A DNA stretch of 64,000 nucleotides from Escherichia coli (GTDB taxonomy: Bacteria > Pseudomonadota > Gammaproteobacteria > Enterobacterales > Enterobacteriaceae), in assembly GCF_003334315.1 (NCBI RefSeq), contig NZ_QOWR01000024.1. One strand, given 5' to 3'. The position numbers and the translations under genes were made by a program. A model generated the notes under the pieces. The model was not told the origin of the DNA. It saw only the letters and a list, made by a program, of their open reading frames with translations, and searched no databases. Positions 27,060 through 64,000 of the stretch are shown here, one piece after another; the stretch's first letter is position 1, and every line of letters begins with the position of its first letter.

Positions 27060-29621
27060 TTACACCAGGCTCTTCAAGCGATAAATCCACTCCAGCGCCT
27101 GACGCGGGGTGAGTGAATCCGGATCAAGATTTTCCAGAGCTTCGACCGCAGGCGAAGTTTCTTCTGGTACTGACAGCAAAGACATTTGCGTACCATCCAC
27201 TTGCGTAGCGGCGGCGTTCGGCGAAATGCTTTCCAGCTCACGCAGCTTTTGCCGTGCGCGCTTAATAACCTCTTTTGGCACGCCTGCCAGAGCTGCAACC
27301 GCCAGGCCGTAGCTTTTGCTCGCCGCGCCATCCTGCACGCTGTGCATAAAGGCAATGGTGTCGCCGTGCTCCAGTGCATCGAGATGCACGTTAGCGACGC
27401 CTTCCATTTTCTCCGGTAACTGGGTCAGCTCGAAATAGTGGGTAGCAAACAGCGTCAATGCCTTAATCTTATTCGCCAGATTTTCTGCGCACGCCCACGC
27501 CAGCGACAGACCATCGTAAGTGGACGTTCCACGCCCGATCTCATCCATCAATACCAGACTGTACTCGGTGGCGTTATGTAAAATATTGGCGGTTTCGGTC
27601 ATCTCCACCATAAAGGTTGAGCGCCCGGACGCCAGGTCATCTGCCGCGCCTACGCGGGTAAAGATGCGATCGATAGGTCCAATCTCGACTTTTTGTGCCG
27701 GTACATAGCTGCCGATGTAGGCCATCAGCGCAATCAGTGCGGTCTGGCGCATATAGGTACTTTTACCGCCCATGTTCGGACCGGTGATGATCAACATGCG
27801 GCGCTGCGGCGACAGATTCAGCGGGTTGGCGATAAATGGCTCATTCAGTACTTGTTCAACTACCGGATGGCGACCTTCGGTAATGCGAATGCCCGGTTTA
27901 TCAATGAAGGTCGGGCAGGTGTAGTTCAGGGTATAGGCGCGTTCCGCCAGGTTCACCAGCACGTCGAGTTCCGCCAGCGCGCTCGCGCTCTGTTGCAACG
28001 CTTCCAGATGCGGCAACAGCAGGTCGAACAACTCTTCATAAAGCTGTTTTTCCAGTGCCAGTGCTTTGCCTTTTGAGGTGAGAACTTTATCTTCGTACTC
28101 TTTTAGCTCTGGAATGATGTAGCGCTCGGCGTTTTTCAGCGTCTGGCGACGCATGTAGTTGATGGGTGCCAGATGGCTTTGCCCACGGCTGATTTGAATG
28201 TAGTAGCCGTGCACCGCATTAAAGCCAACTTTCAGCGTGTCCAGGCCGGTACGTTCACGCTCGCGGACTTCCAGACGCTCCAGATAATCGGTCGCGCCGT
28301 CAGCCAGCGCGCGCCACTCATCCAGCTCTTCGTTATAGCCCGATGCGATAACACCACCGTCGCGTACCAGCACCGGCGGTGTGTCGATGATTGCTCGCTC
28401 CAGCAGATCGCGCAGCTCGGCAAACTCGCCCATCTTCTCACGTAGCGCCTGTACCGGTGCACTATCGACAGTTTCTAACTGCGCACGCAGCTCCGGCAGT
28501 TGCTGGAAAGCGTGGCGCATACGGGCCAGATCGCGTGGGCGAGCAGTTCGTAAAGCCAGACGTGCCAGAATACGTTCCAGGTCGCCGACCTGACGCAGTA
28601 CCGGCTGTAGCCCGGCGGTGAAATCCTGCAATGCGCCAATAGTTTGCTGGCGCTCAAGCAACACGCGGGTATCGCGCACTGGCATATGCAGCCAGCGTTT
28701 CAGCATACGGCTGCCCATCGGCGTGACGGTGCAGTCGAGCACAGAAGCCAGCGTATTTTCCGCACCACCCGCCAGGTTCTGGGTGATTTCCAGATTACGA
28801 CGCGTCGCGGCATCCATAATGATGCTGTCCTGCTCACGTTCCATGGTGATGGAACGAATATGCGGCAGAGTCGTACGTTGGGTATCTTTCGCATACTGCA
28901 ACAGACAACCGGCAGCACAAAGTCCGCGCGGCGCGTTCTCGACGCCAAAACCGACCAGATCGCGGGTCCCAAATTGCAGATTCAACTGCTGGCGCGCGGT
29001 GTCGATTTCAAACTCCCACAGCGGGCGACGGCGCAGGCCGCGACGGCCTTCAATTAACGACATTTCAGCAAAATCTTCTGCATACAGCAGTTCCGCAGGA
29101 TTAGTGCGTTGCAGTTCTGCCGCCATCGTTTCGCGGTCAGCCGGTTCGCTCAGGCGAAAACGCCCGGAACTGATATCCAGCGTCGCGTAGCCGAAACCTT
29201 TGCTGTCCTGCCAGATAGCCGCCAGCAGGTTGTCCTGACGCTCCTGCAACAGGGCTTCATCGCTGATGGTGCCTGGCGTAACGATACGCACAACTTTGCG
29301 CTCAACCGGACCTTTGCTGGTCGCCGGATCGCCAATTTGTTCGCAGATGGCAACGGACTCTCCCTGATTCACCAGTTTGGCGAGATAGTTTTCCACCGCA
29401 TGGTAGGGAATCCCCGCCATCGGGATCGGCTCTCCCGCCGAAGCACCGCGTTTGGTCAGTGAAATATCCAGCAGTTGCGACGCGCGTTTTGCGTCGTCAT
29501 AAAACAGTTCATAAAAATCACCCATCCGGTAAAACAGCAGGATCTCGGGATGCTGGGCTTTCAGCCTGAGATACTGCTGCATCATGGGCGTATGGGCGTC
29601 GAAATTTTCTATTGCACTCAT
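27060..29621 (-). CDS. mutS: DNA mismatch repair protein MutS (853 aa)
   Basis: Full-length MutS with Walker A (GPNMGGKST) and the conserved N-terminal mismatch-binding region. Confidence 0.97.
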
Positions 29622-30297: not shown

Positions 30298-32376
30298 TTA
30301 AATCAATGCCGATTTATCAATTCCCAGCCGCTTCATCCGTGACAGCAGGGTCGTGCGTTTCAGCCCCAGACGTTGCGCAGCGCCTTTAGGCCCGGCAACC
30401 ACGCCGTTGGTTTCTTTCAGCACGCGCACAATCAACTGATATTCATCTTCGCCCTCCAGGGCGACAACCGTTGCGGCAGGCGGCGTTTCAGGTTCCGGTA
30501 AAACAATATCTGGCAATGACAGCTGCAGCACGTTACCGCGTGTTAGCAATACCGCGCGCTCAATGACGTTTTCCAGTTCGCGTACGTTACCCGGCCACTC
30601 CATGTTGCTCAAGGTGCGCAGCGTCTCGGCAGGAATGCTGTCGATATTGCGCCCCAGACGACGGGCAATTTTGAAGGTAAAGGCTTTCGCCAGCAGCGGA
30701 ATATCTTCCGGACGCTCGCGTAGTGGCGGCAGGTGAATCGGGAATACGTTCAGGCGGTAATAGAGATCGCTACGGAACTCACGGTCGGCGACCATTTTTT
30801 TCAGATCGCGGTTAGTCGCGGCGATTAGACGCACGTCCGTCTGAATGATTTTGTTGCTGCCGAGACGTTCAAACTCCTGTTCCTGCAATACACGCAGCAA
30901 CTTCGGCTGTAACTCCAGTGGCATATCGCCCACTTCGTCGAGGAACAGGGAGCTTTTATCCGCCAGTTCAAAACGACCGATACGCTGGGCGCTGGCACCG
31001 GTAAAAGCCCCACGCTCATGACCAAACAGATCGCTTTCCAGCAATCCGGCAGGCATCGCCGCGCAGTTCATTTTGACCATGCGGCGATTATTACGCCCAC
31101 TGAGATTATGGATCGCACGGGCAATCAGCTCTTTACCCGTGCCAGTTTCACCGAGGATCAGCACGGTACTGTCACTTTGCGCCACCATTTCAACTTGTTT
31201 AAGCACGCTGTACATGGCTTCGCTGCGGCCAATAATCTCGCCAAATTCACTATCAACATTGTTGAGCTGCTCGGTCAGGGCGAGGTTTTCATCAACCAGC
31301 CGTTCTTTCAGACGATGGATTTCCTGATAGGCGAGGGCGTTATCGACAGCGATTGCCACACGTTCGGCAATCTGGCGCAGTAAATTCAGATTGGTAGTGG
31401 TAAACACTTTCTCTTCGCATTGCGCCAGTTTCAGCACGCCCAGCATGGTGTCGCCAGACATCAGCGGTAACAGGCACAAGGTTTGAATCTGGTTGCCCCA
31501 GGTGTCGAACAACATGCGTTCATAGGGGGCTAAATCGTCCCGCTCGTGGAGATTGATCAGCAGCATCTCTTTACTTTTGAACACGCGTTCGGTGAGGGTT
31601 CCGGCTTCATCGACTTCGCTCTGTTCGTGGGCGGGATGCTGTTTATCAAGATAGTGAGTGGAGTAGATGTTGAGTTTGTTTTTACGGTGGCTGCGTAAGA
31701 CGATACTGATATCGTCAATGTCGAAATAGTAATGGATTTCTTTGGCGACTTCGCTGACCAGTTCGTCCATATCCAGGCGGGAAAGCACCGCGTTGGTGAT
31801 GGCGACCAGGATGCGGAAGTTATCGCGTTCCCGGCATAACAACTCATAGTCGACATTGTTAACGACGCGGCTCTGGATTTGTTCGGTGACGACAGAAACG
31901 ATCTGCGTAAATGTTTGCAGACGATTGAACTCTTTTTCGCTCCAGGGGCGATCGTCATAACGAATAAATTCACAGCCACCAAAAATATGCCCTTCCGCCG
32001 CCAGTGGCATCAGGCAATAGTGACCAAATTTTGGGTATAGCCCACCTGCGTCCAGCTGCGGCCAGGTTTCACAAAATTCTTCGTAACTGCAATGCAGCGT
32101 ATCAGGGCGCGACAAAATGCTGCGTACCGGACCGTGTGCCAGAACAGTTTCGTCTTCATATTTAATGGGGGTGTCTTTTTCACGCGACGCGTAATAAGAC
32201 GCACGTTGAGTCTGCGCTTGCCACAACACAATAGCCGCGTTGTCGGCGAGCGCAGAACGCTTTACCAGTTGCGAAAGAGCCTCACACAGCGAGGCCAGAT
32301 CGGGCTGCTGCAATAGTGTCCGAGTGATGTCGAACAACCCTTGTTGTCCGAGATCACTCATCGGTGTATATGACAT
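30298..32376 (-). CDS. fhlA: Formate hydrogenlyase transcriptional activator FhlA (sigma-54 bEBP, 692 aa)
   Basis: N-terminus MSYTPMSDLGQQG, AAA+ sigma-54 interaction domain ([14 protein letters not shown]) and C-terminal HTH; the track ORF carries a 12-codon upstream extension. Confidence 0.95.
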   Translation of the reverse strand: MSYTPMSDLGQQGLFDITRTLLQQPDLASLCEALSQLVKRSALADNAAIVLWQAQTQRASYYASREKDTPIKYEDETVLAHGPVRSILSRPDTLHCSYEEFCETWPQLDAGGLYPKFGHYCLMPLAAEGHIFGGCEFIRYDDRPWSEKEFNRLQTFTQIVSVVTEQIQSRVVNNVDYELLCRERDNFRILVAITNAVLSRLDMDELVSEVAKEIHYYFDIDDISIVLRSHRKNKLNIYSTHYLDKQHPAHEQSEVDEAGTLTERVFKSKEMLLINLHERDDLAPYERMLFDTWGNQIQTLCLLPLMSGDTMLGVLKLAQCEEKVFTTTNLNLLRQIAERVAIAVDNALAYQEIHRLKERLVDENLALTEQLNNVDSEFGEIIGRSEAMYSVLKQVEMVAQSDSTVLILGETGTGKELIARAIHNLSGRNNRRMVKMNCAAMPAGLLESDLFGHERGAFTGASAQRIGRFELADKSSLFLDEVGDMPLELQPKLLRVLQEQEFERLGSNKIIQTDVRLIAATNRDLKKMVADREFRSDLYYRLNVFPIHLPPLRERPEDIPLLAKAFTFKIARRLGRNIDSIPAETLRTLSNMEWPGNVRELENVIERAVLLTRGNVLQLSLPDIVLPEPETPPAATVVALEGEDEYQLIVRVLKETNGVVAGPKGAAQRLGLKRTTLLSRMKRLGIDKSALI

Positions 32377-35716: not shown

Positions 35717-36067
35717 TCACTCCTGGTCTATTTCTATCCGCCGAATCTGTAAACCGTCGTCTGCCACAATCTGCAGCATGTCACCATGACACTGTGGACA
35801 GCGGCGGACGCGCTGGGTCAGTAGCGTCACATACTGTTGGCATGTTTCACACCAGCATTCGGCCTCTTGTTCTTCGAGGTGCAGTTTACAACCTTCCGCC
35901 ACGCTGCCGCGGCAAACCAGATCAAAACAAAAGGCAAGAGAGCTGGTTTCGACACAAGAAAATGCGCCAATTTTGAGCCAGACCCCAGTTACGCGTTTTG
36001 CGCCGTGTTTTGCGGCCTGCTGTTCGATCAATTCCAGTGCCCGTTGGCAGAGGGTTATTTCGTGCAT
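35717..36067 (-). CDS. hypA: Hydrogenase nickel-insertion protein HypA (116 aa)
   Basis: MHEITLCQ N-terminus and CxxC...CxxC zinc site; the track ORF has a 4-codon extension. Confidence 0.93.
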   Translation of the reverse strand: MHEITLCQRALELIEQQAAKHGAKRVTGVWLKIGAFSCVETSSLAFCFDLVCRGSVAEGCKLHLEEQEAECWCETCQQYVTLLTQRVRRCPQCHGDMLQIVADDGLQIRRIEIDQE

Positions 36068-36097
36068 ATCGCCTCCCATTAACTATTGCCAGCTACA

Positions 36098-36114
36098 AGC
36101 AATAATTGTGCCAG
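36098..36114 (-). promoter_or_regulatory. Sigma-54 (-24/-12) promoter for the hyp operon
   Basis: Reverse complement reads CTGGCAC-aatta-TTGCT (GG-N10-GC spacing), about 30-45 bp upstream of hypA. Confidence 0.7.
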
Positions 36115-36129
36115 TGTTGATTATCCCTG

Positions 36130-36180
36130 CGGTGAATAATGTCGATGATGTCGAAATGACACGTCGACACGGCGACGAAA
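36130..36180. promoter_or_regulatory. Candidate FhlA upstream activating sequences between the hyp and hyc promoters
   Basis: Repeated GTCGA / CGAAAT motifs (tgtcgaaatgacacgtcgacacggcgacgaaattc) midway between the two divergent sigma-54 promoters. Confidence 0.4.
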
Positions 36181-36224
36181 TTCATCTTTAGCTTAAAAAT
36201 CTCTTTAATAACAATAAATTAAAA

Positions 36225-36241
36225 GTTGGCACAAAAAATGC
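36225..36241 (+). promoter_or_regulatory. Sigma-54 (-24/-12) promoter for the hyc operon
   Basis: TTGGCAC-aaaaa-ATGCT with GG and GC at the canonical spacing, about 40 bp upstream of hycA. Confidence 0.7.
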
Positions 36242-36278
36242 TTAAAGCTGGCATCTCTGTTAAACGGGTAACCTGACA

Positions 36279-36740
36279 ATGACTATTTGGGAAATAAGCG
36301 AGAAAGCCGATTACATCGCACAGCGGCATCGTCGCCTACAGGACCAGTGGCACATCTACTGCAATTCGCTGGTTCAGGGGATCACGTTATCGAAAGCGCG
36401 CCTGCATCACGCCATGAGCTGCGCGCCGGACAAAGAACTCTGTTTCGTCCTTTTTGAACATTTTCGCATTTACGTCACCCTGGCGGATGGCTTTAACAGC
36501 CACACCATCGAGTATTACGTCGAAACAAAAGATGGCGAAGACAAACAGCGGATTGCGCAGGCGCAACTGAGCATTGACGGCATGATTGATGGCAAGGTCA
36601 ACATCCGCGATCGCGAACAGGTTCTGGAACACTATCTCGAAAAAATCGCTGGCGTTTACGACAGCTTATACACCGCTATTGAAAACAATGTGCCGGTGAA
36701 TTTAAGCCAACTGGTAAAGGGACAAAGCCCGGCAGCATGA
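36279..36740 (+). CDS. hycA: Formate hydrogenlyase regulatory protein HycA (153 aa)
   Basis: First gene after the divergent hyp/hyc promoter region. Confidence 0.9.
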   Translation: MTIWEISEKADYIAQRHRRLQDQWHIYCNSLVQGITLSKARLHHAMSCAPDKELCFVLFEHFRIYVTLADGFNSHTIEYYVETKDGEDKQRIAQAQLSIDGMIDGKVNIRDREQVLEHYLEKIAGVYDSLYTAIENNVPVNLSQLVKGQSPAA

Positions 36741-36864
36741 GCTGAGGCTTTGCCCGTTTTGCAGGCGTTACGCCTGTTTGGGGATGGGCGTGTCGATGAG
36801 TGTCGAAAATGACATTTCATCGGCATGTTTTCGTCAAAAATGACAATCACCTGAGGAATGCCTG

Positions 36865-47289: not shown

Positions 47290-47449
47290 AAAATCATGAA
47301 TAGTTGTCACTAAATAAGCAAGAGAGTGAATTGTTCATTTTTTATATTTGTGAAACCGGTCACCTGAATATTTTTCCCGCCGATTGTGCAAGGACAATCG
47401 GCAAACGGTGCAGTACACTGCGTTGATTGCGTGTAAAGGGATGAAAATG

Positions 47450-48460
47450 ATGACGACGATGCTGGAAGTGGCGAAGCGCGCCGGGGTTTCAAAAGCGACC
47501 GTTTCCCGCGTGCTTTCAGGTAATGGCTACGTCAGCCAGGAGACTAAAGATCGCGTGTTTCAGGCGGTAGAAGAGAGCGGTTACCGTCCAAACTTGCTGG
47601 CGCGCAATCTGTCGGCGAAGAGTACTCAGACGCTGGGGCTGGTAGTGACCAACACGCTTTACCACGGCATTTATTTTAGTGAATTACTCTTTCATGCCGC
47701 GCGAATGGCGGAAGAGAAAGGGCGGCAGTTGCTATTGGCAGATGGTAAACACAGCGCAGAAGAAGAGCGCCAGGCGATTCAGTATCTGCTGGATCTGCGC
47801 TGCGACGCGATCATGATTTACCCGCGTTTTTTAAGCGTGGATGAGATCGATGACATCATTGACGCGCACAGTCAGCCGATAATGGTGCTTAATCGCCGCC
47901 TGCGCAAAAACAGCAGCCATAGCGTCTGGTGCGATCATAAACAGACCAGTTTTAACGCCGTGGCAGAGTTGATAAACGCCGGGCATCAGGAGATTGCTTT
48001 CCTTACCGGCTCGATGGATTCCCCCACCAGCATTGAACGTCTTGCCGGGTATAAAGACGCGCTGGCGCAGCATGGTATTGCGCTCAATGAAAAACTTATC
48101 GCTAACGGTAAATGGACGCCTGCCAGCGGGGCCGAAGGGGTAGAAATGTTGCTCGAACGTGGGGCTAAATTTAGCGCGTTAGTTGCCAGTAACGACGATA
48201 TGGCGATAGGTGCGATGAAAGCGTTACACGAGCGCGGCGTAGCGGTGCCAGAGCAGGTGTCAGTTATCGGATTCGATGATATCGCTATTGCCCCCTACAC
48301 CGTTCCGGCGCTCTCCAGCGTAAAAATTCCGGTGACTGAGATGATTCAGGAAATTATTGGACGGCTGATTTTTATGCTCGATGGCGGGGATTTCTCACCG
48401 CCGAAAACCTTCAGCGGAAAACTGATCCGCCGCGACTCACTCATTGCTCCTTCGCGATAA
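47450..48460 (+). CDS. ascG: LacI/GalR-family repressor AscG (336 aa)
   Basis: N-terminal HTH (MLEVAKRAGVSKATVSRVL) and periplasmic-binding-protein-like effector domain; reading frame intact. Confidence 0.93.
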   Translation: MTTMLEVAKRAGVSKATVSRVLSGNGYVSQETKDRVFQAVEESGYRPNLLARNLSAKSTQTLGLVVTNTLYHGIYFSELLFHAARMAEEKGRQLLLADGKHSAEEERQAIQYLLDLRCDAIMIYPRFLSVDEIDDIIDAHSQPIMVLNRRLRKNSSHSVWCDHKQTSFNAVAELINAGHQEIAFLTGSMDSPTSIERLAGYKDALAQHGIALNEKLIANGKWTPASGAEGVEMLLERGAKFSALVASNDDMAIGAMKALHERGVAVPEQVSVIGFDDIAIAPYTVPALSSVKIPVTEMIQEIIGRLIFMLDGGDFSPPKTFSGKLIRRDSLIAPSR

Positions 48461-48608
48461 ACATTGTCATCACATGTCATCGTCACTAGTGTCGATGACA
48501 TCGTTTTTCCTGCATTACAGAAATTAATTTCCTTAAATAACAGTAAATTAAAAACTGGCATGATTTGTGAATGTATCGGCGCATTAACTGTCATTGCTGG
48601 AGAATTTG

Positions 48609-54284: not shown

Positions 54285-54302
54285 TTGCAGATTGCGTGCC
54301 AG
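54285..54302 (-). promoter_or_regulatory. Sigma-54 promoter for norVW
   Basis: Reverse complement reads CTGGCAC-gcaat-CTGCA (GG-N10-GC), about 45-65 bp upstream of the norV start. Confidence 0.7.

Positions 54303-59363: not shown

Positions 59364-60901
<1,538 letters not shown>

Positions 60902-62866: not shown

Positions 62867-64000
<1,134 letters not shown>

Follow-up and report, generated by a model that had tools for sequence, protein, structure and literature searches.

What turns on two operons that run in opposite directions from the few hundred base pairs between hypA and hycA in Escherichia coli? The spacer lies in a 64-kb window (the whole stretch of DNA analysed here, 64,000 nucleotides), and a first-pass annotation made from the letters alone had read it as a pair of divergent sigma-54 promoters with a candidate enhancer for the activator FhlA between them. 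The region is the master switch of fermentative hydrogen production (formate hydrogenlyase) in enterobacteria, and is a classic case of enhancer-dependent bacterial transcription. We consider it highly probable (approximately 93%) that divergent transcription of the E. coli formate regulon is controlled here, through two sigma-54 promoters and FhlA enhancers.

The locus and its two sigma-54 promoters

A 1061-bp stretch around the hypA–hycA spacer matches E. coli chromosomes at 100% identity and occurs in 5426 of 5426 complete genomes. With RefSeq gene coordinates carried over from an E. coli record of identical sequence, the spacer measures 211 bp and occupies exactly positions 36068–36278, between the annotated hypA coding sequence (35717–36067, read on the minus strand as MHEITLCQ...) and hycA (36279–36740, plus strand). 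The latter, which has homologues in Pfam family PF11046, encodes an anti-activator of FhlA and is the first gene of hycABCDEFGHI, while fhlA itself (30298–32376, minus strand in the same annotation), which closes the hypABCDE-fhlA unit, encodes the sigma-54 activator that senses formate. The annotated gene order in the window is mutS, ygbA, fhlA, hypEDCBA, hycABCDEFGHI, ascBF, ascG and hydN-hypF. The position of fhlA at the end of the hyp operon, which had been put at about 4 kb from the spacer, is borne out (its start codon lies 3.7 kb away). The further statement that the window holds a self-contained formate-responsive regulon is wrong, because fdhF (at 4.30 Mb in K-12) and hyf lie elsewhere on the chromosome; hydN-hypF is inside the window, 12 kb from the spacer. 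No Rfam family was matched between positions 29000 and 50000, and a scan for sigma-70 promoters and terminators gave results at chance level only, with no competing sigma-70-like promoter.

For comparison across the family, 80 loci from distinct Enterobacteriaceae species were fetched via an alignment of HycA homologues (63–100% HycA identity). In all 80, a divergent hypA lies 188–223 bp from hycA, and conservation is reported below for 81 aligned spacers.

The GG-N10-GC elements described for both strands are present, at 36098–36114 on the minus strand (CTGGCAC-aatta-TTGCT) and at 36226–36242 on the plus strand (TTGGCAC-aaaaa-ATGCT). The hyp promoter TGGCACAATTATTGCT (36098–36113, minus strand) has its GG at 36111–36112 and its GC at 36099–36100, and the hyc promoter TGGCACAAAAAATGCT (36227–36242, plus strand) has its GG at 36228–36229 and its GC at 36239–36240. 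Placing the transcription start approximately 12 nt downstream of the GC predicts starts near 36087 for hyp and 36253 for hyc, with leaders of 20 and 26 nt, respectively. The consensus TGGCAC-N5-TTGCW is matched exactly at hyp and with one mismatch at hyc. This loose consensus has no significance alone (4 matches with at most one mismatch in the window versus 3.7 expected) and was therefore replaced by a matrix of 186 RpoN sites from a published table, with which both strands of the whole window were scanned (approximately 128,000 positions). The hyp promoter ranked first (score 19.0) and the hyc promoter third (15.3); a site upstream of norV came second, and fourth place (15.05) went to a site inside hycA.

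Both promoters are also constrained across the family. In the 81 aligned spacers, the GG and GC of the hyp promoter and the TGGCA and TGC of the hyc promoter are invariant, as is the hypA ribosome-binding site GGAGG (36072–36076, minus strand), and the lowest RpoN scores are 15.2 on the hyp side and 13.6 on the hyc side. The distance from the end of the 16-mer to the start codon is 35–38 nt for hycA, in the correct orientation, and 28–35 nt for hypA with one exception.

Published binding data identify the same two sites. In the sigma-54 ChIP-seq study of Bonocora et al. (2015), OS27 is assigned to hycA (TTGGCACAAAAAATGCT, FAT 91) and OS28 to hypA (CTGGCACAATTATTGCT, FAT 201); the leaders are put there at 26 and 20 nt, and both sites count as experimentally confirmed in EcoCyc. 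The corresponding 17-mers in the window are identical to OS27 and OS28, and the published leader lengths reproduce exactly, giving starts at 36253 and 36087. Both promoters are thus published sigma-54 sites. In addition, the orthologous sites in Salmonella are bound by sigma-54 in ChIP-chip experiments, with hyc and hyp transcripts that are sigma-54-dependent and assigned to FhlA, and the hypA–hycA spacer is a gSELEX target of the RpoN holoenzyme.

Taken with their start regions, the two promoters (36087–36113 and 36227–36253) form a 27-nt inverted repeat that is 81% complementary and continues beyond the -12 elements into the start region (GCTTnnAGCTGGCA). The extension beyond -12 is weakly conserved outside Escherichia.

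Candidate activator sites in two spacers

The tract between the promoters (36130–36180) had been proposed as the FhlA upstream activating sequence on the strength of its repeated GTCGA (at 36141, 36150 and 36163) and CGAAAT (at 36152 and 36176) motifs. Clustering of GTCGA has no significance alone, as a comparable cluster arose in 141 of 200 shuffles. A matrix of 13 FhlA sites, taken from a published table and built from characterised FhlA-dependent promoters, was scanned over both strands of the whole window and placed TGTCGATGATGTCG (36140–36153, score 16.1) second in 64 kb. This match belongs to a predicted enhancer, here termed UAS1 (36139–36169), which also contains an overlapping near-palindrome TGTCGAAATGACA (36149–36161) and GTCGAC (36163–36168). 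UAS1 is strongly conserved in the 81 spacers, with the family consensus GTGACGATGTCGACGnTGACGAAATGACACGTCG. The adjoining linker (36170–36195), which includes the second CGAAAT (36176–36181), is unconserved, and many genera have a shorter version of it or lack it. The proposal thus holds for 36139–36169 and fails for the second CGAAAT.

A 16-nt FhlA consensus, CATTTCGTACGAAATG, is given in a review quoting Leonhartsberger 2000. Allowing up to three mismatches, it finds no match in the whole window, both enhancers included. Its half-site CGAAATG/CATTTCG is present, lying at 36152–36158 in UAS1, and because UAS1, UAS2 (described below) and the hydN upstream region all show the half-site only, the consensus looks idealised rather than diagnostic. 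Binding of FhlA upstream of fdhF and hyc has been described in a preprint.

Between UAS1 and the hyc promoter, 18 nt upstream of the hyc TGGCAC, lies an IHF-like element TAACAATAAATTA (36209–36221, plus strand) with one mismatch to WATCAANNNNTTR. Such one-mismatch matches are common by chance (59 found versus 45 expected). At the same offset from the hyc -24 element, the match is perfect in 27 of the 81 spacers and has one mismatch in a further 30 (57/81 together). On the other side of the promoter, the hycA leader TCTCTGTTAAACGGGTAACCTGAC (36253–36278, plus strand), which contains GTTA-N6-TAAC, was unexpectedly found to be conserved more than most of the spacer; folding of the leader RNA gave no significant structure (z = 0.56).

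A second predicted enhancer, UAS2 (36789–36847), was missed by the first-pass annotation. It lies in the hycA–hycB spacer, approximately 730 bp upstream of the hyp start, and comprises site A TGTCGATGAGTGTCGAAAATGACA (36791–36814) and, 31 nt further on, site B TTTCGTCAAAAATGACA (36829–36845). The best FhlA-matrix match in the window, TGTCGAAAATGACA (36801–36814, score 17.5), falls here, together with the related CGTCAAAAATGACA 31 nt downstream (36832–36845, score 12.2), and the block contains the direct repeat D1. The left half of UAS2, TGTCGATGAGTGTCGAAA, nearly duplicates TGTCGATGATGTCGAAA of UAS1: a core of 17–18 nt is common to the two, 650 bp apart, and the shared pattern is confined to the two enhancers, against a chance expectation of 0. 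The UAS2 block is near-invariant in 77 distinct hycA–hycB spacers (67–146 nt long) whose remaining sequence is unconserved. Both enhancers are strongly conserved across at least 17 genera, and UAS2 is conserved at least to the same degree as UAS1, if not better.

Upstream of UAS2, an imperfect hairpin (36711–36764) straddles the stop codon of hycA, with GTTTTG after it. The 5' half of the hycA–hycB spacer, where the downstream arm of the hairpin lies, is unconserved and is confined to Escherichia, Salmonella and Citrobacter as a group.

How the enhancers may be divided between the promoters

These elements would fit the following scheme. Sigma-54 RNA polymerase would form closed complexes on the back-to-back promoters, facing leftward into hypABCDE-fhlA and rightward into hycABCDEFGHI, and both promoters would remain silent until FhlA, an AAA+ activator itself activated by formate, binds an enhancer, loops the DNA and remodels the closed complex with ATP. 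The general sigma-54 enhancer and looping model, and formate sensing by FhlA, come from published sources; occupancy of these particular sites by FhlA and IHF, and the pairing of each enhancer with a promoter, we infer or take from the literature. At hyc, the enhancer would be the cluster of TGTCGA and TGTCGAAATGACA at 36139–36169, with the IHF-like bend at 36209–36221 aiding the looping. The centre of UAS1 (approximately 36151) lies at about -100 relative to the predicted hyc start, within the range of approximately 70–150 bp given in the literature as usual for enhancers of sigma-54 promoters. At hyp, UAS2 most likely serves the promoter from approximately 730 bp. With fhlA closing the hyp operon and hycA, whose product antagonises FhlA, opening the hyc operon, the arrangement would combine positive autoregulation with negative feedback.

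This division of labour, with UAS2 as the enhancer activating hyp from approximately 0.7 kb and UAS1 as the enhancer activating hyc with IHF, reportedly goes back to deletion and footprint work by Lutz in 1990 and by Schlensog and Hopper in 1994. No statement placing a hyp enhancer between hycA and hycB was found in the texts searched.

The alternative that survives best is a single shared enhancer, in which 36139–36169 drives both promoters, as the first-pass annotation implied, and the hycA–hycB element is auxiliary or serves another purpose. UAS1 does sit between the two promoters, and its spacing to each changes in a suggestive manner: among genera, 49, 60–63 or 71–72 nt separate the UAS1 core from the hyc -24 element, and 44–46 or 56–57 nt separate it from the hyp -24 element. 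These steps of approximately 11 bp, roughly one helical turn, suggest compatibility with face-of-helix constraints toward both promoters. However, no more than about three independent indels lie behind them, one being the gain of an extra repeat unit, so that they are weak evidence for a shared enhancer. UAS1 also lies closer to hyp than is usual, approximately 64 bp from the predicted start and 27 bp from the -24 element, and the conservation of UAS2, at least as strong as that of UAS1, implies that it has a function of its own. Deletion and footprint work, as mentioned above, reportedly gave UAS2 to hyp. Being so near to the hyp -24 element, UAS1 may also influence hyp. We therefore regard a single shared enhancer as unlikely, at perhaps a fifth of the weight that certainty would carry, and retain the reading in which each promoter has its own.

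Two further observations concern the same spacers. In the part aligned to 36113–36227, an extra TGTCGATGAC-type repeat unit is found in Kluyvera, Pseudocitrobacter and Superficieibacter, and in Klebsiella and Raoultella the enhancer itself contains 12 inserted nucleotides.

Two variants of the scheme with separate enhancers are, even taken jointly, improbable. In the first, UAS1 would be phased with both promoters and would modulate hyp positively or sterically, making the spacer a true bidirectional enhancer. In the second, the sigma-54-like site TGGCACATCTACTGCA inside hycA (36348–36363, plus strand, sense) would be a real promoter, yielding hycB–I transcripts without the anti-activator gene hycA, possibly driven from downstream by UAS2. 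Its RpoN score is as good as that of the hyc promoter, and a score of at least 12 is kept in 43 of 80 orthologues. As a promoter, however, this site was rejected: its GG and GC coincide with the codons for the invariant Trp24 and Cys28, TGC is no more favoured over TGT at Cys28 (62:18) than it is at Cys48 (58:22), His is found at codon 25 in only 41 of 80 orthologues, and the site is missing from published sigma-54 ChIP lists. Coding constraint is the simplest and best account of the site.

A different regulator of hyc, such as ModE-molybdate, could in principle be the main protein bound at the conserved tract in place of FhlA. ModE is reported to be needed, with FhlA and formate, for maximal expression of fdhF and hyc, and other conserved blocks of the spacer, such as GTTA-N6-TAAC in the leader, have no assigned factor. 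However, the motif recurs at UAS2 and partly upstream of hydN and fdhF, which are members of the FhlA regulon, and the published matrix that detects it derives from characterised FhlA-dependent promoters, so that binding mainly by another factor appears very improbable. Least tenable is the reading of the GTCGA and CGAAAT repeats as a chance or compositional feature with no regulatory role, which could draw on the shuffling result, the unconserved second CGAAAT and the unmatched 16-nt consensus but appears effectively refuted by conservation, given that the tract is near-invariant across genera in which the flanking spacer has diverged, holds the second-best FhlA-matrix match in 64 kb and has 17 nt of core sequence in common with another site, where chance would give 0.

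Comparison with known sigma-54 systems

The scans also returned sites outside the two spacers. High FhlA-matrix matches far from any sigma-54 site, TGTCGATGGTGTCA (59810–59823, plus strand, score 14.9) and TGAAAATGATGACG (47442–47455, plus strand, score 13.7), are probably chance matches. A perfect FNR/CRP-type palindrome, TTGATCTTCATCAA, was found at 63513–63526, downstream of a pncC-like open reading frame; judging from the K-12 map, it presumably lies inside recA. Within hypA, the FNR consensus had no match at two or fewer mismatches.

The second-best RpoN match in the window is the norV promoter TGGCACGCAATCTGCA (54286–54301, minus strand), which matches published OS25. Like hyc/hyp, the norR-norVW locus places a sigma-54 promoter and several enhancer sites (three for NorR) in a divergent spacer, with IHF, for which hyc/hyp has a candidate element. 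In contrast to hyc/hyp, only one of its two divergent promoters is sigma-54-dependent, and both the activator and its motif (GT-N7-AC) differ.

The window contains a third FhlA-dependent unit, hydN-hypF, whose sigma-54 promoter TGGCATGATTTGTGAA (48556–48571, plus strand) matches published OS26. Both this promoter and that of fdhF resemble hyc/hyp in combining a -24/-12 element with an upstream cluster of TGTC/GACA-type repeats, but unlike hyc/hyp they are single and unidirectional. The hydN -12 element (TGTGAA) also lacks the GC found at hyc and hyp, and the RpoN score is weak (11.0). Upstream of hydN (approximately 48464–48503), TGTCA/TGTCGATGACA-type repeats are present with poor FhlA-matrix scores. 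Upstream of hydN and fdhF the matrix gave at most 8.1. Strings in common with the enhancers can nevertheless be seen: TGTCGATGA is common to the hydN upstream region and the hyc/hyp enhancers, and CGTCAAAA(A/C)TGAC to the fdhF upstream region and site B of UAS2.

The closest known system is the locus itself. The divergent NtrA-dependent promoters are said to have been originally described by Lutz, Böhm, Beier and Böck in 1990 (Mol Microbiol 4:13), and the FhlA enhancers at hyc/hyp reportedly by Schlensog in 1994 and Leonhartsberger in 2000. The first-pass observation is confirmed and its interpretation is essentially correct, for a region already known since 1990–2000 that is experimentally characterised textbook material and offers nothing new for the field; the confirmation mainly shows that sigma-54 promoters and activator sites can be recognised by that reader from raw sequence. 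A modest addition is the family-wide footprint, across 80 genomes, of constrained bases in both enhancers, at the IHF-like site and in the leader of hycA. The E. coli hyc/hyp system of divergent NtrA (sigma-54) promoters with FhlA enhancers and the region described here are the same locus with the same sequence, and do not differ.
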